A stretch of 64,000 nt of DNA from Patescibacteria group bacterium (GTDB lineage: Bacteria > Patescibacteriota > Doudnabacteria > UBA920): the NCBI GenBank assembly GCA_036726225.1, contig DAIMCS010000001.1:69776-133775 (forward strand), in the 5' to 3' direction. Shown here in pieces: positions 2,246 through 54,445 of this stretch. How positions within the stretch are numbered: the stretch's first letter is position 1; every line of letters begins with the position of its first letter. The position numbers were made by a program, and so were the translations under genes. Under the pieces are notes generated by a model, which saw nothing but the letters and a program-made list of their open reading frames with translations, was not told where the DNA came from and searched no databases.

Positions 2246-2383
2246 ACTTCCCCCTTATGGTTTTGAGTCATCTAAATGGAAGTTTAGAACAAAATTAGAT
2301 AATTTGTCCAGATTCAACTACCTCGACAAGAGACTTATTTTTATGGTAATATTACAAAGATTTAACACACAATAAAGAAAGGA

Positions 2384-2436
2384 TTCCCAAAAATCAGGAG
2401 CGCAGTCTCAAAGAGACGAGCACGGATTTTTGGGAA
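2384..2436 (+). repeat. Copy A of the hairpin-repeat family: TCCCAAAAATC-AGGAGCGCAG-[TCTC AAAG AGA]-CGAGCACG-GATTTTTGGGA. It lies about 65 nt upstream of tRNA-Ser.
   Basis: Same outer stem and conserved internal strands as the copies at 10808, 21056, 49463, 50001 and 58751. Confidence 0.7.
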
Positions 2437-2503
2437 AAAGGAGTAAACGGCATACTGTAGCAGCCTGCGGAGCAGGATGCGGAAGTGATGCCGATTACGA
2501 CGT

Positions 2504-2593
2504 GGAAGCGTCGCATAGTGGTCTAGTGCACACGCTTGGAAAGCGTGCAACCTGTCAAAGGGTTCGAGGGTTCGAATCCCTCCGCTTCCGCCA
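2504..2593 (+). tRNA. tRNA-Ser (anticodon GGA), type II with a long variable arm
   Basis: Acceptor GGAAGCG/CGCTTCC. 3-bp D stem. Anticodon loop TTGGAAA. Variable arm AACC-TGTCAAAG-GGTT. T arm GAGGG-TTCGAAT-CCCTC. Discriminator G followed by CCA. Confidence 0.85.
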
Positions 2594-9470: not shown

Positions 9471-10646
9471 TCAAGCGTACTGGCGAACCAATTCATGTGC
9501 CACTTCGGCTACACGAATTATTGAACCGTCCGGGCCTGATATGCGATACCGGATGTACTTACCGGTGCCCGAAAACATCAAATCGGTATAGCTCACGATG
9601 CCATGTTGTGCCAAAGCCATCGCGAACTCATACGAATTTTTCCCAGCCCTGAGCCAACCCTCCGGTAAGAGGATATACAAAAAGATACTCGCAAGCCACT
9701 GCGGAACTTCCTTCCATCCAGCTTCATTGAAGAGCTCGAACGTTCTGTCCCCAAGAGTCGTGTAAATCTTGCGGGTCTCTTCAATTGCGTTGGGGCTAGT
9801 CAGACAGCCATTGAGACCGGCAGCAAAACCAACCTGGGCGCTGCGGCTGCCGCCTTCAAATTCGCTGCGATTAATTGCTTTTACCTGACTAACTACGTGC
9901 TGGTCTCCCATAAGGCCTCCGCTCATCAAGCCCGGATACCGCAAAAACTTGGAAGCGGAATTGGTTGTTACAACCTTCCTCTGCAAAGCACCCTGTACCC
10001 GCAAAGCGCTTGCGGGAAAAGCTCCTCGGGTGATGTAGCGATAAGCATCGTCAAACCAGGTAATCGCATTAACCCTTTCACTTATCTCAACTGCTCGTTC
10101 TGTTTCCTGCCAAGTCATAATCTCGCCGGTTGGGTTGTCAACAGGAAGATGAACGAAAACGTCGGCAGCAAAATCACCGACAACTTCTTCATCGAGCCTG
10201 TCAACGTATCGGTCCTTGCCAAATTCGTATTCAACGAAACGGCAGATCCCCCCGGCTTTTTCTATTGTTGCAACGTGCCCACCATAGCATGGCTTACGAA
10301 GAACAAAGACCGGCGGTCGTCCTAACTTATTACGAAGAGCGTCAGCTAGTTGACCAGTAAAGCGCCTTGTACCTGCTGCGCCAATCATAATATTGTCGTC
10401 ATCCAGCTCAACACCGTCAATTTGGCTGGAAAAAACTTGTAGGGCTTCAATGCATTTTTGCAATCCCTTTCTGGGAGCATAGTGATGCATTTTTGGCTGC
10501 CGTTTTGCCTCTATCTCTGCTTCGAGTGTGACTGGATCAGGTTCCCCTTCAGGATTACCCAAGCCACTATCGTGATAGAACTTACCGAAAGCCTCGGCCG
10601 TGCTCTCGATATTAAATCTCATGGCTTCTGGACTCAGTTGAATCAA
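9471..10646 (-). CDS. PLP-dependent aminotransferase (class I/II fold)
   Basis: NPTG motif and TNSASKFL (SxSK PLP-lysine motif). GC content clearly higher than neighbours. Confidence 0.65.
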   Translation of the reverse strand: MIQLSPEAMRFNIESTAEAFGKFYHDSGLGNPEGEPDPVTLEAEIEAKRQPKMHHYAPRKGLQKCIEALQVFSSQIDGVELDDDNIMIGAAGTRRFTGQLADALRNKLGRPPVFVLRKPCYGGHVATIEKAGGICRFVEYEFGKDRYVDRLDEEVVGDFAADVFVHLPVDNPTGEIMTWQETERAVEISERVNAITWFDDAYRYITRGAFPASALRVQGALQRKVVTTNSASKFLRYPGLMSGGLMGDQHVVSQVKAINRSEFEGGSRSAQVGFAAGLNGCLTSPNAIEETRKIYTTLGDRTFELFNEAGWKEVPQWLASIFLYILLPEGWLRAGKNSYEFAMALAQHGIVSYTDLMFSGTGKYIRYRISGPDGSIIRVAEVAHELVRQYA

Positions 10647-10807
10647 TTTCTTTCTCCCCTATTTCAAAAATCGTTATTGTCCCTCGTTGAAATTTTTAAA
10701 ATGCCTCAAATTACCCTCTGTTTGGGAGGTAGCGGCACGCGCAAAAATACCAACTAATTCTTGCGCTTACCGCCTAGGCCCCAAAATTTACACCAGAAGA
10801 ATGAGGG

Positions 10808-10980
10808 CTCCCAAAAATCAGGAGCGCAGTCCCGATGACCATCGGGACGAGCACGGATTTTTGGGAATGCGGGGCAATGTCCCGAAGGCTGAAGTGGGCG
10901 AAAAACCTTTCGCACACGTAAGCCGCAGGGACAATTGACCCGCAGTGGCGGGGGCCTAAAAATTTTTGTTTTAGGTCCCC
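10808..10980 (+). repeat. Copy B of the hairpin repeat (10808-10866) plus a ~90-nt structured module homologous (reverse orientation) to the tRNA-Ile and tRNA-Ala 3' flanks. It ends at a tRNA-3'-end-like minihelix GGGGACCUAAAA...UUUUUAGGCCCCCGCCA on the minus strand.
   Basis: Manual alignment: GGGGCAATGTCCCGAAGGCTGAAG...ACGCGTAAGCCG.AG.ATTGACCCG matches the reverse complement of 49928-50000 and 49388-49460. The inner hairpins covary. Confidence 0.65.
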
Positions 10981-11085
10981 ACAACCACTTTCAATCATAC
11001 TTTATCATACAATGTCATACAAAATATTGTCAAAAAACATATTTTGGCTTATGTAAGCCAAAACGATTTGAACAATCCACACCTT

Positions 11086-20866: not shown

Positions 20867-20870
20867 AATA

Positions 20871-20984
20871 AGGCAGCCACCTACTTTTGCACATACATGC
20901 GTATGACTATCATTGGCCCGTGCGCGTTTTACTTCTGAGTTCGGGATGGGATCAGGTAGAGCCGCGCTGGAAATGCCACCCTCG
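20871..20984 (-). rRNA. rrf: 5S ribosomal RNA (ends approximate)
   Basis: The reverse complement contains CCTGATCCCATCCCGAACTCAGAAGTAAAACGC and ...AGTAGGTGGCTGCC, matching the 5S loop C and helix I regions. Confidence 0.65.
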
Positions 20985-21055
20985 TCGTACTTTATTCCGG
21001 GCTTTCGTCCCGATTTATAATCGGGACTCTCGCCCTCCATAAAGTACTCCTCTTT

Positions 21056-21107
21056 CCAAAAAATCCGTACTCGCTCGCTTACGCTCGCTCCGTTCCTGAT
21101 TTTTTGG
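21056..21107 (-). repeat. Copy C of the hairpin repeat, in the 23S-5S spacer: CCAAAAAATC-AGGAACGGAG-[CGAGCG TAAG CGAGCG]-AGTACG-GATTTTTTGG. A related hairpin GTCCCGATTTATAATCGGGAC lies at 21009-21029.
   Basis: Seen directly. Same orientation as the rRNA. Confidence 0.65.
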
Positions 21108-21453
21108 AATCTTGGATAAACCTTTATGGAATAAAATTCAACGAGGATGCACTTAGTTTATGGTCTTATTGCGTTTACTGAATTTTGCGTGGCTATAAAG
21201 AATGCTGCGGTTACAAGCAAAATTAACAAAATAACGCCATAAACCTTTAAGTGTTGTCTCATTGTATATACAAATTAACAAATGGCACAAATGAAACGAA
21301 TAACCACAAATCTGTTAATATCAGTTTCATTTGTGCATCCGTATATTTGTATCTTACACACTCACAAATTGCTAGTCAAAAAAGTTAAAATTTTCGATTG
21401 ATTAGTACTGCTCGGCTGAACACATTACTGTGCTTACACCTGCAGCCTATAAA

Positions 21454-21518
21454 TCAGTAAACAGTTCACAGTACGCAGTATACAGTATTGCTACTGTCTA
21501 CTGTTTCCTGTTTACTGA
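21454..21518 (-). repeat. Palindromic hairpin insertion TCAGTAAACAG...CTGTTTACTGA in the 23S 3' domain
   Basis: Absent from the E. coli-type sequence between conserved blocks. Confidence 0.5.
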
Positions 21519-21865
21519 GCACTGATGAAATACGCGGTAGTCTTCCGCGAATCTGTATTATGTATTGCTACATAAAACGAAACCTAGTTTTGTAGACGGC
21601 TTCACGCTTATATGCATTCAGCGCTTATCCAAACTAGACCTAGCTACCCCGCCATGCCCTTGACAGGACAACGGGTACACCAGAGGTCTATGCATCTCGG
21701 TCCTCTCGTACTAGAGATGCGACTACTCAAGTTTCGAACACCCACAGCAGATAAGGACCAAACTGTCTCACGACGTTTTGAACCCAGCTCGCGTACCACT
21801 TTAATATGCGAACAGCATAACCCTTGGGAGCTTCTTCACCCCCAGGATGTGATGAGCCGACATCG

Positions 21866-22362
21866 TACATAATCCATACTTTCGTATGGGGCAGACTATA
21901 TCTTGTTCTTGTCAGCGGTTTTAGGATCTGTCTCCATAACCTGCTTTTTTTTGACAAGACTCGGCGTATTATGGAAACAAGTATTAGGTATTATGTATAA
22001 CGTATTAAGCGCTGCAGACTGCAGTCGCCTTATACCTTATACTATATACTTTATACCTGCTTACATCTTCCCTTTCGGGTCAGTCGTTACGGGGTCAATG
22101 ACTAGTATTACGTATTATGTATAAAGTATTAGGTGCTGCAGTTGCAGTCACGTTATACCTTATACGTTATACTTTATACTACCCACGACTTCCCACGGTG
22201 TTGCCGGTTACTTCTTGTTTCCACTTAAGTAACTACGGGTTCACCGTTATAAGCCGAATTTATTTTCTTAGAATTATTATCACTCCGACTATTACGTCGG
22301 AGCAGACGGAACTAAGACACTTAGGTATGAGATTGCTCTCAAAGCACCCCGATTGATGGTTA
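21866..22362 (-). other. About 500-nt insertion in 23S domain V. It sits between ...GGTTTGGCACCT and CGATGTCGGCTC, next to the peptidyl-transferase centre. Its AT-rich interior contains two large palindromic hairpins built from GTATAA/GTATTA hexamers around GCTGCAG..CTGCAG loops.
   Basis: Conserved exon-like blocks were identified on both sides. The insert does not end in G, so it is not an obvious group I intron. Confidence 0.6.
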
Positions 22363-23103
22363 AGGTGCCAAACCCTCTCGTCGATGTGGACTCTTGGAGA
22401 GGATCAGCCTGTTATCCCTAGAGTAACTTTTATCCGTTGGGCTTTGCGTCTTCCACTCGAACGCATCGGATCACTAACTTCCACTTTCGTGCCTGCGCGG
22501 GTCGCCGCCCTTGCAGTCAAGCATGCTTATGCGTTTGCACTATCGGCATGATTTCCATCCATGCCTAGCATACCTTAATAAACGCCTCCGTTACCATTTA
22601 GGAGGCAACCGCCCCAGTTAAACTACCCACGAGCCACTGTCCCAAAGTAGGTTAGACTTTGGTTAGCAATTTCACTTCTACAGGGTGGTATTTCACCTGT
22701 TGCCTCCATTTCAGCTGGCGCCGAAACTTCAAAGGCTCCCACCTAGGCTAAACAATAAAAATAAAATTGCAATGACACGCTATAGTAAAGCTTCATAGGG
22801 TCTTTCCGTCTTGCTGCGGGTAGACGGCATCTTTACCGCCATTGTAAGTTCATCGGAATGTTCGTTAAGACAGTCCTCTACTCGTTATGCCATTCGTGCG
22901 GGTCGCAACTTACGCGACAAGGAATTTCGCTACCATAGGACAGTTATAGTTACTGCCGGCGTTCATCAGGGCTTGGCCAACCACCTTGCGGCGGTCGGTT
23001 TAACCTTCTGACACTGGCCAGGCATCAGCCCGTATACATCAGCTTAACGCTTTAGCACGGACCTAAGTTTTTGGTAAACAGTCGGGAGAGGTCTTTTGTT
23101 GCA

Positions 23104-23417
23104 GCCTAAGTCTTTACTTTTTGGAAGTGATGCTGTTGATAAACCCATTTTTCATATGTTAGAAAATGGATTAGTATATGAATAGCATCGCTGATCGTAA
23201 ATGAAAGAAAGGGAGGATCCAAGATGACGCCAACGGTATCAATTATGGTCGGAATAGCGCTGTGTCTATTCGCAATCACCGTTCCGGTGGTTCCTGTTCT
23301 GTGGGACACGCTCAAGGAACGCTAATGCGTTTGATGGCTGTCGAACGGGGTTGCTTCGCAATCCCGTTTTTTCTTTCTTTAAAATCTTTTTCACTTACAA
23401 AAAGTAAAGACTTAGGC
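23104..23417 (-). other. 314-nt insertion in the 23S helix-63 region, bounded by a perfect 20-bp inverted repeat GCCTAAGTCTTTACTTTTTG / CAAAAAGTAAAGACTTAGGC (IVS-like)
   Basis: The flanks match GGCAAAA...GG and GGCTGCAAC...GACGCCTG...GGAAGGTTAA of 23S. Confidence 0.6.
23224..23325 (+). CDS. Candidate 33-aa hydrophobic peptide MTPTVSIMVGIALCLFAITVPVVPVLWDTLKER. It is encoded antisense to the 23S rRNA, inside the IR-bounded insertion.
   Basis: GGGAGG SD 7 nt upstream of the ATG. Intrinsic terminator AACGGGGTTGC-TTCG-CAATCCCGTT followed by TTTTTT at 23344-23372. Confidence 0.3.
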   Translation: MTPTVSIMVGIALCLFAITVPVVPVLWDTLKER

Positions 23418-24087
23418 AAGGTATATACCTAAGGTACACCTGCTTTTTTGCCGAGTTCCTTAACGAACATTGCTCCGGACGCCTTGGGATTCTCTCCCCA
23501 TCCACCTGTGTCGGTTTACGGTACGGACACCATTAAACATGATTACGACGGTTTTCTTGGCACCTTGATTCACACTAATTCCCGTTGCCAGGTTTCTTTA
23601 TACTCTCGAGCTTGAAACCGGCTGCAAGTCCTTTTGGGACCGACAGACAGTAATGAGTTGCGGATTTGCCAACAACTCACCCTACAAGTACAACAACGCA
23701 AATAGTCAGATTACGCTAGTGTTATCATGATGCGTCACGCCTTAAATAATTTAATGGTGGTTATGGAATATCAACCATATTTTCCATCGGGTGAATCCCT
23801 TGGGACCCACTCTTAGGATCGACTAACCCAGGGACGACGATCGTTGCCCTGGAAACCTTGGATATTCGGCGAAGAGGATTCTCACCTCTATATATATTAC
23901 TTATTCCAACATTCTTACTTGTACACTGTCCAGCGCCGCTTACGCATACGCCTTCAGCCTGTGTACAACACTCCTCTACCACCAATGCAATGTTACTCGC
24001 ATTGATCCACGTCTTCGGCACCTAGCTTAGCCCCTATATATTGTCGGCGCAGGATCGCTTGACCAGTGAGCTGTTACGCTTTCTTTA

Positions 24088-24124
<37 letters not shown>

Positions 24125-24517
24125 GGGCAATCCCACATCCTTTGCACTATAGCTAGGATTTGGGGGCCTTAGACGGTGGTGTGGATTCTTCTCCATTTGT
24201 CTCGTGAAGCTTAGACCTCACGGACTGACTGCCGAGATCTTGACCAAAAGAATTCGGAGTTTGGTTGGAGCCTACCGATTGCTCAGCAGGTTTCCATTCA
24301 GTGCTCTACCTCTTTTGGGAACTCTCGACGCTAGCCCTAAAGCTATTTCGAGGAGAACCAGCTATCACCCGGTTCGATTGGAATTTCTCCCCTACGCACA
24401 GCTCATCCCCTATTTTTGCAGCAATAGTGGGTTCGGACCTCCCGTTGCTTTTACACAACGTTCATCCTGGCCATGCGTAGCTCACGCGGGTTTCGGGTCT
24501 AACTCATGCGACATATA

Positions 24518-24603
24518 AGTAGGTATAAAGTATTACGTATTAAGTATTAGGTATCAGGGCAAATGCCGAGATACGTTATACCTTATACTTCATACTTTAT
24601 ACA
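24518..24603 (-). repeat. AT-rich palindromic hairpin insertion in 23S (GTATAAAGTATTACGTATTAAGTATTAGG...ATACCTTATACTTCATACTTTATAC), the same family as 25212-25296 and the pair inside 21866-22362
   Basis: Seen directly. Confidence 0.55.
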
Positions 24604-24721
24604 AACTTATTACGGACTATTCATCCTCGCTTTCACTACACTTTCGTCTTTGTTAAGACTTAAGTAAGCCGCATAAGATTAACTCGTTGGATCATTCTTC
24701 AATAGGCACGCGGTTAGCCAT

Positions 24722-24816
24722 CACAGATACACTGATTTACACTGATTTCGCAGATATATATAGATTTAATCTATATATAAATCTGTGTTATCTGCGTCCA
24801 TCAGAGTATCTGTGAT
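24722..24816 (-). repeat. Palindromic hairpin insertion in 23S (CACAGATACACTGATTT...AGATATATATAGATTTAATCTATATATAAATCT...TATCTGTG)
   Basis: Seen directly. Confidence 0.5.
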
Positions 24817-24878
24817 CGGGCCTTCCACTCCTTGTAAGTATACGGTTTCAGATACTATTTCATTCCCCTTCCGGGGTG

Positions 24879-24919
<41 letters not shown>

Positions 24920-25211
24920 ATATGAGTATTTAGCCTTAGATCTTAGTCGACCTGATTTCCGACCAGATTTCTCGTGTCTGGTCGTACTCAAGAAAAAGTT
25001 AGGAAATTGCATGGTTTTTCGCGATACGGGACTATCACCCTCTTTGGTCCGCCGTTCCAGGCGTGTTCTGCTAAACAGCAAACATAATTCCCTGCCCCTT
25101 TACAGCGGGGCAATAACTTCCACTTATAACACCTAATTAGCAACGACTGTAATCTTTAATTCTCCGCCTTGCGGCTTTGAAAACACTAATTAAGTTTGGG
25201 CTAATAAAGCA

Positions 25212-25296
25212 AGTATAAAGTATTATGTATAACGTATTACGCATCCGGGCAAAAAGCCAAGATACTTTATACCTTATACTCTATACTTTATACAAA
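25212..25296 (-). repeat. AT-rich palindromic hairpin insertion near the 23S 5' domain (GTATAAAGTATTATGTATAACGTATTACG...TTTATACCTTATACTCTATACTTTATAC)
   Basis: Seen directly. Near-identical arms to 24518-24603. Confidence 0.55.
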
Positions 25297-25591
25297 CTCT
25301 ATATACTTCCGCTTTCGCTCGCCACTACTAACGGAATCTCGTTTCGTATTGCTACGAAATTGATTTATTTTCCACGTGCTACTGAGATGTTTCACTTCGC
25401 ACGGTTCCCGCATACTATACCCCACGGCATAGCAGCACATACTCTTCCAGTATGTGGGTTTCCCCATTCGGACATCCACGGATCAAAGCTCTGTTGCCAG
25501 CTCCCCGAGGCTTTTCGTAGGCTCAAACGTCCTTCATCGGCTCATATTACCTAGGCATCCACCGTATACCCTTAACTTATTTTAACTTTTA

Positions 25592-25671
25592 CAAACTGAT
25601 TAACACTTACGAGAACGGATTAACACGGAGTCCGTGTCCTTCCGTTGCCCTCATCTGTGTTCATCTGTTTG
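25592..25671 (-). repeat. 80-nt direct repeat, copy 1, in the 23S leader. It contains the perfect palindrome ACACGGACTCCGTGT. Copy 2 lies at 25892-25971 (78/80 identical).
   Basis: Seen directly. Confidence 0.7.
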
Positions 25672-25891: not shown

Positions 25892-25971
25892 CAAACTGAT
25901 TAACACTGACGAGAACGGATTAACACGGAGTCCGTGTCCTTCCGTTGCCCTCATCTGTGTTCGTCTGTTTG
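25892..25971 (-). repeat. 80-nt direct repeat, copy 2, in the rRNA leader
   Basis: Seen directly. Confidence 0.7.
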
Positions 25972-49126: not shown

Positions 49127-49307
49127 CGGGCTTTTTTTGTTATTTTGGTTTCAAAAAGTGAAAGGAATCTAATTAATAATAATATAATTTACGAGTATTG
49201 TCAAAATTTCGGATATTTGGTAAAATTTGATGGAATTGGTTTAAAAGGCTCCCAAAAAATCAAGCAACTTTTTAGGAAAAAAGTACTACCACAAATCGGG
49301 ACAACGC

Positions 49308-49382
49308 GCGCGTGTGTAGCTCAGTGGTAGAGCACGTCACTGATAATGACGGGGTCGCAGGTTCGATCCCTGCCACACGCAC
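49308..49382 (+). tRNA. tRNA-Ile (anticodon GAT)
   Basis: D arm GCTC-AGTGGTA-GAGC. Anticodon loop CTGATAA. T arm GCAGG-TTCGATC-CCTGC. 3' CCA encoded. Confidence 0.8.
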
Positions 49383-49387
49383 CACAA

Positions 49388-49516
49388 CAGGTCAATCGTT
49401 CTTTCGGCTTCCGCGTCCTGAAAAATTCAGGCCGCTGCAGCCTGCAGAACGTTGCCCTTCATCACAAAAATCCGTGCTCGATTCGCTTTCGCGAATCTGC
49501 GCTCCTGATTTTTGTG
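49388..49516 (+). repeat. Conserved structured tRNA 3'-flank module, copy 1: GGTCAATCGTTCTTTCGGCTTCCGCGTCC-[CTGAAAAATTCAG]-GCCGCTGCAGCCTGCAGAACGTTGCCC... It ends in hairpin-repeat copy D at 49463-49516.
   Basis: Aligns base for base with 49928-50076 and with the reverse complement of 10808-10942. Confidence 0.7.
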
Positions 49517-49581
49517 AATTAAAGGCTCCGCGTTTTAGGAGCCTTGACAAGCCCTTTAGACTCTAAATTAAAAACAAAAAT

Positions 49582-49803
49582 ATGAGATTTCTTTTTGCCC
49601 CACTATTATTCGCATTAGGCGTGCTGTGCATGAAGTATTCTGTATTTATTACCGACCAATTCACGGGACGAATTGATATGGCGGAAAAAATTTTTGGCGC
49701 CGGGATGGGCGCAGGCACATATACTTGGTGGAAACTTTTTGGTTTAGGCATGTGTATTTTAAGTCTTTTGTGGATTACCGGTTATTTAAAATTTGGAATT
49801 TAA
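49582..49803 (+). CDS. Possible small two-TM membrane protein between tRNA-Ile and tRNA-Ala (no SD; doubtful)
   Basis: ORF track only. Confidence 0.2.
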   Translation: MRFLFAPLLFALGVLCMKYSVFITDQFTGRIDMAEKIFGAGMGAGTYTWWKLFGLGMCILSLLWITGYLKFGI

Positions 49804-49849
49804 AAATCCTCCGCAAAAACGAGGAGCGCAGTTCCGACAAGTCTGACGA

Positions 49850-49925
49850 GGGCCCTTAGCTCATTTGGTAGAGCGCCACATTTGCAATGTGGAGGTGACC
49901 GGTTCGAGCCCGGTAGGGTCCACCA
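49850..49925 (+). tRNA. tRNA-Ala (anticodon TGC) with the G3:U70 identity pair
   Basis: Acceptor GGGCCCT/AGGGTCC. Anticodon loop TTTGCAA. T arm ACCGG-TTCGAGC-CCGGT. Discriminator A followed by CCA. Confidence 0.85.
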
Positions 49926-49927
49926 CG

Positions 49928-50076
49928 GGTCAATCATTCTTACGGCTTACGCGTCCCCGAAAGTCGGGGCCGCTTCAGCCTTCAGAATGTTGCCCCTTAT
50001 CCCAAAAACCCCTGCCTGCCGGCAGGCAGGCGTACTCGTCCCAATGGAAATTGGGACTCCGTTCCTGGTTTTTGGG
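49928..50076 (+). repeat. Conserved structured tRNA 3'-flank module, copy 2. Its inner hairpin CCCCGAAAGTCGGGG covaries with the copy-1 hairpin. It ends in hairpin-repeat copy E (50001-50076), which carries an extra GC hairpin CCTGCCTGCCGGCAGGCAGG.
   Basis: Seen directly. Confidence 0.7.
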
Positions 50077-50098
50077 AACCCTAATATAAACAAAAATT

Positions 50099-50122
50099 AC
50101 CGCCTAATGGGCGGTTTTTTGT
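50099..50122 (+). terminator. Intrinsic terminator ACCGCC-TAATG-GGCGGT followed by TTTTTTG
   Basis: Seen directly. Confidence 0.7.
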
Positions 50123-53191: not shown

Positions 53192-54286
<1,095 letters not shown>

Positions 54287-54445
54287 TTAGTAATTAATGA
54301 ATCCTGAAGAGATAAAAAATGTTATTACTTTTCAAAAACGATTAATAACAAAATGAATCTCTAACGGGATCATATTGAAAGGATTCTACCACAACACCTA
54401 CTTCTATGTCAACCGACTTTATAACTTTACAAACTTTAAGAACTT

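Follow-up and report, generated by a model that had tools for sequence, protein, structure and literature searches.

A covarying two-hairpin module family positioned at the ends of stable-RNA genes in one clade of Candidatus Doudnabacteria

Bacteria of the candidate phyla radiation (CPR) have tiny genomes, unlinked rRNA genes, interrupted rRNAs and a reduced set of ribonucleases (RNases). To our knowledge, the maturation of their stable RNAs is largely unknown. Structured palindromes next to stable-RNA genes have been described in organelles: in Neurospora crassa mitochondria, GC-rich PstI palindromes reportedly flank tRNA and rRNA genes, an observation attributed to Yin, Heckman and RajBhandary in 1981 (Cell 26:325). 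That paper is reference 17 of a report on double-hairpin and other repetitive hairpin-forming elements of fungal and sponge mitochondrial DNA, which lie between genes and inside rRNA genes and have no known function (PMC2800124). Here we describe a structured module of about 140 nt in a 64-kb stretch of a Doudnabacteria genome (contig DAIMCS010000001.1, positions 69,776 to 133,775; hereafter the window) and in metagenome contigs. The module is a variant of structured palindromic flanks of stable-RNA genes, and it belongs to a family that is real, has not been catalogued before and is specific to one lineage, a clade of Candidatus Doudnabacteria.

All three tRNA genes of the window and its 5S rRNA gene carry one module each, flush against one end (Table 1), and a fifth copy, C, is located between a promoter-like site and an aminotransferase gene (9471-10646). 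In this window tRNAs were called by ARAGORN, RNA families by Rfam 15 and protein domains by Pfam. An initial sequence-only reading had proposed that the sequences 3' of tRNA-Ile and tRNA-Ala (copies A and B) and a third, minus-strand copy (C) align with one another. They do so over their whole length at 66-73% identity (0.70, 0.66 and 0.73 pairwise), and a 24-nt degenerate motif, GGTCAATNNTNCNTNCGGCTTNCG, occurs three times in the window against 0.00 expected in shuffles. The covariation proposed for the first hairpin is likewise borne out: RNAalifold on A-C yields two hairpins with 49 pairs, and in 20 of these both sides change with pairing kept. Single copies fold 4-10 standard deviations better than shuffles, and for the individual hairpins z runs from -5 to -9.6. 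Searches with a covariance model (CM; R1) built from A, B and C added copies D and E and, even with the covariance-search filters off, no more copies in the window.

The modules are about 110-160 nt long and consist of two hairpins joined by a 3-4-nt linker. Hairpin 1 measures about 60-75 nt; above its basal helix comes an inner helix of 4 bp, with a small pyrimidine-pyrimidine internal loop on either side, and the tip varies. In hairpin 2 the lower stem is palindromic, YCCCAAAAAT...ATTTTTGGGR, a 4x4 internal loop is conserved and the tip varies here too; the frame of hairpin 2 (CCCAAAAATCCGTRCTCG...CTSCGYTCCTGRTTTTTGGG) is common to all five window copies. Hairpin 1 of D and E is a separate subtype, with GTCGYA...TRCTCC instead of GGGTCAAT...ATTGCCCC. 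The two subfamilies align end to end and thus form one family in two orientations; joint alignment by MAFFT failed for hairpin 1, so they were analysed separately. Rfam 15 gave no match to the modules at gathering score and only chance-level matches at E<=10, and no earlier description of the family was found in the open-access literature. Resemblances to hepatitis delta virus (HDV)-like and hairpin ribozymes, bulge-helix-bulge motifs, boxA, attC and K-turns were considered, and none fitted the consensus.

Compensation is also evident in the second subfamily. Among 13 copies of the type represented by D and E, both sides change in 22 of 33 pairs, and 91.4% of cells pair, compared with 56-58% when the partner is slid by one column. 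Changes on both sides occur in 81 cells, where shuffles give 27 +/- 4, and the covariation score reaches 0.51 compared with 0.21. The structure of the module is under selection. Hairpin 1 identity between any two copies does not exceed 0.81, the closest pair being the orthologous 5S leaders of two further species (L044 and L050), which indicates an old, maintained family rather than a recent burst.

Table 1. Positions of the modules, the RNA genes that they adjoin and other features discussed in the text (window coordinates unless a locus is named)
Feature	Position	Strand	Basis or remark
tRNA-Ile(GAT)	49310..49384	+	CCA encoded; ARAGORN, Rfam 75 bits
tRNA-Ala(TGC)	49850..49925	+	CCA encoded; ARAGORN and Rfam
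tRNA-Ser(GGA)	2504..2593	+	ARAGORN and Rfam
5S rRNA	20868..20983	-	Rfam 73.6 bits
23S rRNA	21381-25587	-	Rfam
Module A, trailer type	49386..49524	+	CM R1 152 bits; fold
Module A hairpin 1	49389-49458	+	fold
Module A hairpin 2	49462-49517	+	fold
Module B, trailer type	49924..50084	+	CM 151 bits; fold
Module B hairpin 1	49927-49996	+	fold
Module B hairpin 2	50000-50077	+	fold
Module C, trailer type	10802..10944	-	CM 149 bits; fold
Module C hairpin 1	10944-10868	-	fold
Module C hairpin 2	10867-10808	-	fold
Module D, leader type (inverted)	2378..2504	-	CM 60.5 bits, E 3e-12
Module D hairpin 1	2498-2443	-	
Module D hairpin 2	2436-2384	-	
Module E, leader type (inverted)	20980..21115	+	CM 47.9 bits, E 3e-9; fold z -9.6
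Module E hairpin 1	20987-21047	+	
Module E hairpin 2	~21055-21109	+	
Hairpin ending ...GCCAC	10946..10988	-	fold; ~19 bp, 6-7-nt A-rich loop
Small ORF, window	49582-49803	+	
Small ORF, L037	7897-8169		
Small ORF, L039	~9568-9790		
Small ORF, L062	3585-3854		

A scan of metagenome contigs with the hairpin 2 pattern returned 19 loci, in 18 of which the CM confirms a module; the remaining one (L055) is a chance match inside a GC-rich coding region. More than 20 copies are known from metagenome contigs, besides the five of the window. The hairpin 1 pattern derived from A-C, scanned over genome contigs, gave 26 matches in GC-rich Proteobacteria and other unrelated genomes; none scores with the CM, which identifies them as chance matches. 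The pattern was too narrow.

Placement in the metagenome loci, read from CM matches, ARAGORN, Rfam and flanking sequence, follows a simple rule with two forms. In the trailer type the module lies on the tRNA's own strand, with the junction ...CCA-C|GGGTCAAT. It follows tRNA-Ile and tRNA-Ala in the window, tRNA-Gly in L043, and both tRNA-Arg and tRNA-Lys in L046; in L052 a tRNA-Leu is followed by two tandem modules, and in L047 the module comes after a T-arm, acceptor and CCA end. Module B begins 1 nt past the CCA of tRNA-Ala (CCA-C-GGGTCAAT), and the core GGTCAAT of module A begins 5 nt past that of tRNA-Ile; an extra hairpin is predicted by folding at 50011-50030, within hairpin 2 of B. In the leader type the module lies on the opposite strand, and the RNA strand reads ...ATTGCGAC-GW|+1, with a constant 2-nt spacer before the mature end. 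Leader-type modules adjoin tRNA-Lys (L042 and L046), tRNA-Asn (L048), tRNA-Glu (L051), tRNA-Arg (L057), tRNA-Met (L059), tRNA-Gly (L043) and the 5S rRNA in L044 and L050. In the window, module D forms the 5' leader of tRNA-Ser, ending ...CGAC-GT|G(+1), and module E, within the 23S-5S spacer, ends ...GTACGAC-GA|G at the 5S 5' end. Both flanks are present at tRNA-Gly of L043 and tRNA-Lys(CUU) of L046. Hairpin 1 always faces the RNA gene in both types, and the sequences downstream of leader-type junctions have no common motif. The family thus exists as a set of covarying folds with fixed polarity and spacing relative to stable-RNA ends.

Two informative exceptions, both inverted, lie at other kinds of boundary. 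In L049 (11473-12067, minus strand) the 16S rRNA is interrupted at about E. coli position 516/517 by an insertion that holds a group I intron (Rfam 74 bits) and then an inverted module. Exon 1 ends ...CTAACTCTGT, the insert ends ...CTGACGA and exon 2 begins GCCAGCAGC, with the module ending exactly at the boundary. Group I introns are expected to end in G, but the last base of this insert is A; with the exons placed as here, simple self-splicing cannot join them. In L054 (595-725, plus strand) the inverted module, ending ...GCGACGAAT, directly precedes the glmS ATG, which places the hairpin base 4 nt from the AUG; the encoded GlmS is 69% identical to that of the window. The fold sets a conserved GGAG, located at the 5' foot of hairpin 1, beside the AUG (...AAGAGGAG, hairpin, CGACGAAUAUG), an arrangement that could constitute a split Shine-Dalgarno sequence, and the L054 glmS leader holds no other Shine-Dalgarno sequence.

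Such constancy of the leader boundary, 2 nt past the hairpin base whether a tRNA, a 5S rRNA or a 16S exon follows, raises the question of whether the module itself makes the end. By analogy with the HDV-like theta ribozymes, it might be a novel element that matures RNA ends by self-cleavage or in some other protein-independent way, cutting at its gene-proximal boundary to free mature 3' ends in the trailer type and 5' ends in the leader type, and ribozymes adjoining tRNA 3' ends do have a precedent (PMC10879173). The 4-nt distance between the hairpin base and the AUG in L054 would also suit such an element, although the GGAG there could simply be a Shine-Dalgarno sequence placed beside the AUG by the hairpin. 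We regard this explanation as very improbable: the Rfam search returned no ribozyme family even at E<=10, the consensus comprises two simple nested hairpins with no pseudoknot, and leader and trailer RNAs are mutually complementary and cannot share a catalytic core. A broader proposal, which we consider rather unlikely yet worth stating, is an undescribed mode of RNA-end definition in this CPR lineage, acting either as a portable end-maker with a fixed 2-nt spacing or as a structure-guided mobile hairpin that homes to stable-RNA termini. In the first form, hairpin 1 would yield the 5' ends of tRNA, 5S and 16S fragments whatever follows and, with slightly different spacing, a near-leaderless glmS mRNA; in the second, the hairpin would home with fixed polarity to RNA-gene termini on either strand.

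Copies A and B directly follow tRNA 3' ends; the sequence-only reading had tied the module to such ends and favoured an element integrated at a tDNA 3' end, with copy C beside a tRNA 3'-end fragment. The string that suggested this, ...GGCCCCCGCCA-CTGC-GGGTCAAT, is present upstream of C. The hairpin that bears it is self-contained, with its CCAC paired to an upstream GUGG, no T-loop sequence and both 'acceptor' strands present; for these reasons it is not a tDNA 3'-end fragment. Hairpins unrelated to tRNA that end ...gcaCCAC also precede the module in L045 and L052, and the helix-N-CCA-C junction looks like part of what the trailer type needs, or was copied with, rather than an attachment (att) scar. 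The aminotransferase gene beside C had been singled out for its GC content. It does have the highest value among the 41 open reading frames (ORFs; 0.495, z 2.1), though by a margin of 0.01-0.02, and it is not a clear outlier: three ORFs lie within 0.02 of it, its GC content at third codon positions is ordinary (z 1.2), and 1-kb windows elsewhere reach 0.488.

Two features speak for integration, the helix-N-CCA string before C and the GC rank of its neighbour. Pfam searches on 20 ORFs flanking the copies revealed housekeeping enzymes and pilus genes only, with no integrase. The 3'-terminal 22 nt of tRNA-Ile, tRNA-Ala and tRNA-Ser do not recur in the window at <=5 mismatches, and a scan of viral contigs for the module gave 0 matches. 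The further copies D and E are both inverted and lie at the 5' ends of tRNA-Ser and 5S rRNA, not at 3' ends. Inverted copies at the 5' ends of tRNA, 5S rRNA and a 16S exon are predicted by no att-site model. A genomic island or phage remnant integrated at a tDNA 3' end is therefore almost certainly not what these copies represent.

Two metagenome loci place trailer-type modules after RNAs of less familiar form. In L045 (354-472, plus strand) a sequence of about 120 nt separates tRNA-Leu(CAG) from the module. It folds into a closed, three-arm, cloverleaf-like structure (z -4.8), goes unrecognised by ARAGORN and Rfam, and has a 12-nt 3' end, cctgggcaCCAC, identical to the 3' end of tRNA-Leu(UAA) in L052. 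In L047 (858-1001, minus strand) a canonical T-arm, acceptor 3' strand and ACCA (cccggTTCGAGTccggg tcccgca a CCA) precede the module; no matching 5' acceptor strand was found within 110 nt upstream, and Rfam likewise gave no relevant match on the upstream RNA. Judged by its sequence, this RNA may be a tRNA that holds a long intron; alternatively, the contig may end within some other tRNA-like RNA.

Predicted transcription signals lie outside the modules. Sigma-70-like sites beyond leader-type modules point at the tRNA; in L042, L046, L048 and L058 these are TTGAYA-N17-TAGAAT/TAAAAT sites 10-30 nt beyond the distal end of the module. At module D the predicted order is promoter-like site (2323-2352, plus strand), inverted module, tRNA-Ser and bidirectional terminator. 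Predicted intrinsic terminators come after trailer-type modules, and in the window one such terminator (50099-50115 with a T-run) is located downstream of module B, while a promoter scan places a site at 49198-49226, upstream of tRNA-Ile. From this arrangement, the modules would be transcribed as leaders or trailers, and the leader type, given the side on which its promoters lie, as the reverse complement. Where tRNA-Ser meets the convergent gene for pyruvate phosphate dikinase, a symmetric A6-stem-T6 hairpin at 2592-2624 lies between the two genes; it takes in the final 2 nt of the tRNA-Ser CCA and resembles a bidirectional intrinsic terminator.

The best reading of these observations is a family that serves as, or is tolerated as, processed flanks of stable-RNA precursors. 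The most likely role of the module, modelled on its placement and predicted signals and held with about as much belief as doubt, is that of a processed leader or trailer whose family is copied as a DNA palindrome and leaves no integration scar. The sequence-only reading had offered a trailer or processing RNA shared by tRNA precursors as its alternative; this fits better than integration but is too narrow, as it leaves out 5' leaders, rRNA flanks and the use of both orientations. In the processed-flank model, the module would be co-transcribed with the tRNA, 5S rRNA or 16S fragment and would fold co-transcriptionally into two imperfect hairpins. Since inversion keeps the Watson-Crick stems of a hairpin, the helices are the same in both orientations, which differ only in loops, mismatches and wobbles, and the lower stem of hairpin 2 is a perfect palindrome. 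Removal would occur during end maturation, by RNase P at tRNA 5' ends and by an endonuclease cutting just 3' of the CCA, possibly aided by a double-strand-specific RNase III-type cut. A two-fold-symmetric enzyme would account for the tolerance of both orientations. Where both flanks exist, a leader-trailer helix might form: the minimum-free-energy fold at tRNA-Gly of L043 pairs leader hairpin 2 with trailer hairpin 2, although L046 need not do so. The family would spread and be maintained as a DNA palindrome copied in either orientation.

Several observations weigh against a processed-flank role. Three other Doudnabacteria have no module after tRNA-Ile and tRNA-Ala: there the trailers of L039 are short and unstructured, and those of L037 and L062 are about 130 nt long and unrelated to the module; the module is dispensable at these orthologous loci. 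Similarly, the glmS gene of the window lacks the module that leads glmS in L054, and both the L054 copy and copy C occupy mRNA 5' regions and adjoin no stable RNA. Strand asymmetry is a further difficulty. In both subfamilies the strand of the module itself is rich in pyrimidines at unpaired positions, with internal loops of 5'-UNC/5'-UNC around the 4-bp helix in trailers and TTTC/TCTC in the leader type, so that leader RNAs carry purine-purine loops. G.U pairs are rare on both strands (2-4%). The rarity of G.U pairs and the pyrimidine asymmetry are better explained by a constraint that acts on the DNA, or on one fixed strand, than by a role at the RNA level alone. Neither counts of G.U against A.C pairs nor folding energies single out the strand under selection: the reverse complement always folds better by 1-12 kcal/mol, an effect of better-scoring purine mismatches.

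These same asymmetries bring in a different explanation, in which the module is a selfish or neutral hairpin repeat resembling miniature inverted-repeat transposable elements (MITEs), REPINs, PATEs or the mitochondrial double hairpins. Strand-specific insertion machinery would target the 3' side of strongly folding single-stranded DNA stems, and copies would persist in precursor flanks that are discarded anyway. Since a tRNA or 5S gene folds on either strand, such targeting would leave copies at 3' ends in one orientation and copies at 5' ends in the inverse. On the module strand, every copy does lie 3' of a stem, be it a tRNA, an antisense tRNA or 5S, or a plain hairpin (C, L045 and the first L052 copy), and the modules are multi-copy imperfect palindromes in intergenic DNA. 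The variable presence of the module among species at the same loci, the few G.U pairs and a mismatch asymmetry that follows one DNA strand in both orientations are consistent with this, as are the tandem copies in L052, the copy inside an rRNA insertion, the occurrence in L045 of the cctgggcaCCAC end of the L052 tRNA-Leu with no tRNA before it, and a Y1 (RAYT-like) transposase in a related genome.

Other features are harder to reconcile with a mobile repeat. The copies compared show neither target-site duplications nor terminal inverted repeats: the module ends (GGGTCAAT... and ...GGGAACCCTAA) are not mutual inverted repeats, and the flanks carry no duplication. The 0.81 ceiling on hairpin 1 identity, with orthologous 5S leaders as the closest pair, gives no sign of recent movement, and leader-type junctions lack a common motif on their downstream side. 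Pfam finds no transposase in the window, which covers 64 kb of a genome of about 0.5 Mb, and the Y1 gene of the related genome L037 is bracketed by a different, 27-nt palindrome. A selfish repeat is thus a possible but doubtful account of the family. The Y1 gene itself (L037 14772-15471) encodes a 207-aa IS200/IS605-type transposase between guaB and purA, and with its two identical palindromes, TAGTGTCAAGGGCGACCCTTGACACTA, it is arranged like a RAYT/REP locus, here in a CPR genome; the window has nothing at the syntenic position (54272-54445). An origin of the module from this RAYT/REPIN-like system was considered and rejected, as its palindromes are unrelated to the module.

Copy C, which adjoins no stable-RNA gene, has its own promoter-like site, TTGACA-N18-TATGAT, at 11033-11004 (11 of 12 positions matching) and a junction that mimics the tRNA helix-N-CCA-C. 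As hairpin 2 also hardly varies in its lower stem and internal loop across the five window copies, this might suggest that the module is itself the product, a stable small RNA (sRNA) freed by tRNA-processing enzymes from precursors that contain a tRNA or a hairpin, in the way of tRNA-linked sRNAs and 3' external transcribed spacers, protected at both ends by its hairpins and acting in trans, for instance through the CUCCU internal loop of hairpin 2. Yet leader-type copies are predicted to be transcribed as the reverse complement and would give an RNA of different sequence, and the module is absent in relatives. Conservation of hairpin 2 in the metagenome set is partly an effect of ascertainment, its pattern having been the query, and in copies that only the CM detects the tip of hairpin 2 diverges. 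A small-RNA function is accordingly improbable, and the processed-flank reading remains the one that we prefer.

Several neighbouring features of these loci were also noted. The 23S rRNA gene of the window is 4207 nt long against a 2925-position model, with about 1.3 kb of insertions, inside which no ORF of >=120 aa was found and no Rfam intron was reported. Its leader (CACAAATTGCTAGTCAAA, ~25690) pairs with its trailer (TTTGACTAGCAATTTGTG, ~21378) in a leader-trailer helix of the ordinary kind. A direct repeat of about 78 nt, AAACAGAYGAACACAGATGAGGGCAACGGAAGGACACGGACTCCGTGTTAATCCGTTCTCGTMAGTGTTAATCAGTTTG, occurs twice upstream of the 23S gene (~25593-25670 and ~25893-25970, minus strand), and the nearer repeat stops a few nt short of the 23S 5' end. 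The window holds no 16S gene, and tRNA-Ile and tRNA-Ala lie 24 kb from the rRNA genes; the rRNA operon is thus unlinked. Between tRNA-Ile and tRNA-Ala, a small ORF of 73-90 aa is conserved in four Doudnabacteria species (Table 1), with the consensus MRF(F/I)L(A/S)P...CMKYSV.ITDQF(T/S)GKID(M/F/L)AEK..G.G.GAGTYTWWKLFGL. It has no Pfam match and appears to be co-transcribed with the two tRNAs. In L037 (7552-7661) and L058 (~40-150), a different insert of about 100 nt (CCTCCTTCGC...GGAGGGCGAGA...) follows the first 12-13 nt of a tRNA, after which these 12-13 nt are repeated as the start of an intact tRNA (GGGCGTGTAGCTC occurs twice in L037). The sequence of this insert suggests a second type of small element inserted at tRNA 5' ends; in L058 a leader-type module adjoins the upstream partial tRNA copy.

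A covarying element of about 140 nt, placed with nucleotide precision, makes it possible to test concretely for a processing signal peculiar to this lineage or for a repeat that follows an unusual target rule. Annotation is affected too, as the modules create spurious ORFs and, in a 0.5-Mb genome, mimic tDNA-integration scars or novel sRNAs.

Comparison with described systems places the module closest to organellar elements. It shares with the Neurospora palindromes the form of conserved hairpin-forming repeats on either side of tRNA genes in long transcripts, reportedly proposed there as processing signals. Those repeats are organellar and, as reported, sequence-invariant with a core of about 18 nt, whereas the module is bacterial, about 140 nt long, two-hairpinned and covarying, and has fixed polarity and spacing relative to the RNA end. 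Like the mitochondrial double-hairpin elements, it consists of two hairpins with conserved or compensated stems, is multi-copy and lineage-specific, occurs both between genes and within rRNA genes, and has no flanking duplications; those elements, however, are not tied to RNA termini and are reported to be retained in transcripts (PMC2800124), while the module adjoins mature ends.

Bacterial systems resemble the module in part. As in rRNA leader-trailer helices and RNase III-excised intervening sequences (PMC11404451, PMC10250234), the flanks are structured and, as we infer for the module, co-transcribed and discarded. Compared with leader-trailer helices, the module is mostly single-sided and self-folding, flanks tRNA and 5S rather than 16S and 23S, and forms a repeat family across genes. 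HDV-like theta ribozymes 3' of phage tRNAs (PMC10879173) likewise put a structured RNA directly after a tRNA 3' end, but the module has no Rfam HDV match and no double pseudoknot, its CCA is encoded upstream and retained, and an inverted version exists at 5' ends. With REP/REPIN-RAYT systems and IS200/IS605-derived palindromes it has in common imperfect palindromes in many copies, few G.T pairs, compensated stems and a Y1 transposase known in a related genome. In contrast to REPINs, no 5' GTAG-type tetranucleotide is evident by eye in the aligned copies, no formal search having been made; the window has no Y1 gene, and divergence among the copies greatly exceeds what is usual in REPIN populations. 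The strict tie to RNA gene ends is a feature of the module and not a property of REP sequences. The module fully shares the defining features of none of these systems; its closest analogues are organellar, and as a bacterial parallel to the palindromes that flank mitochondrial tRNA genes it is of evolutionary interest.

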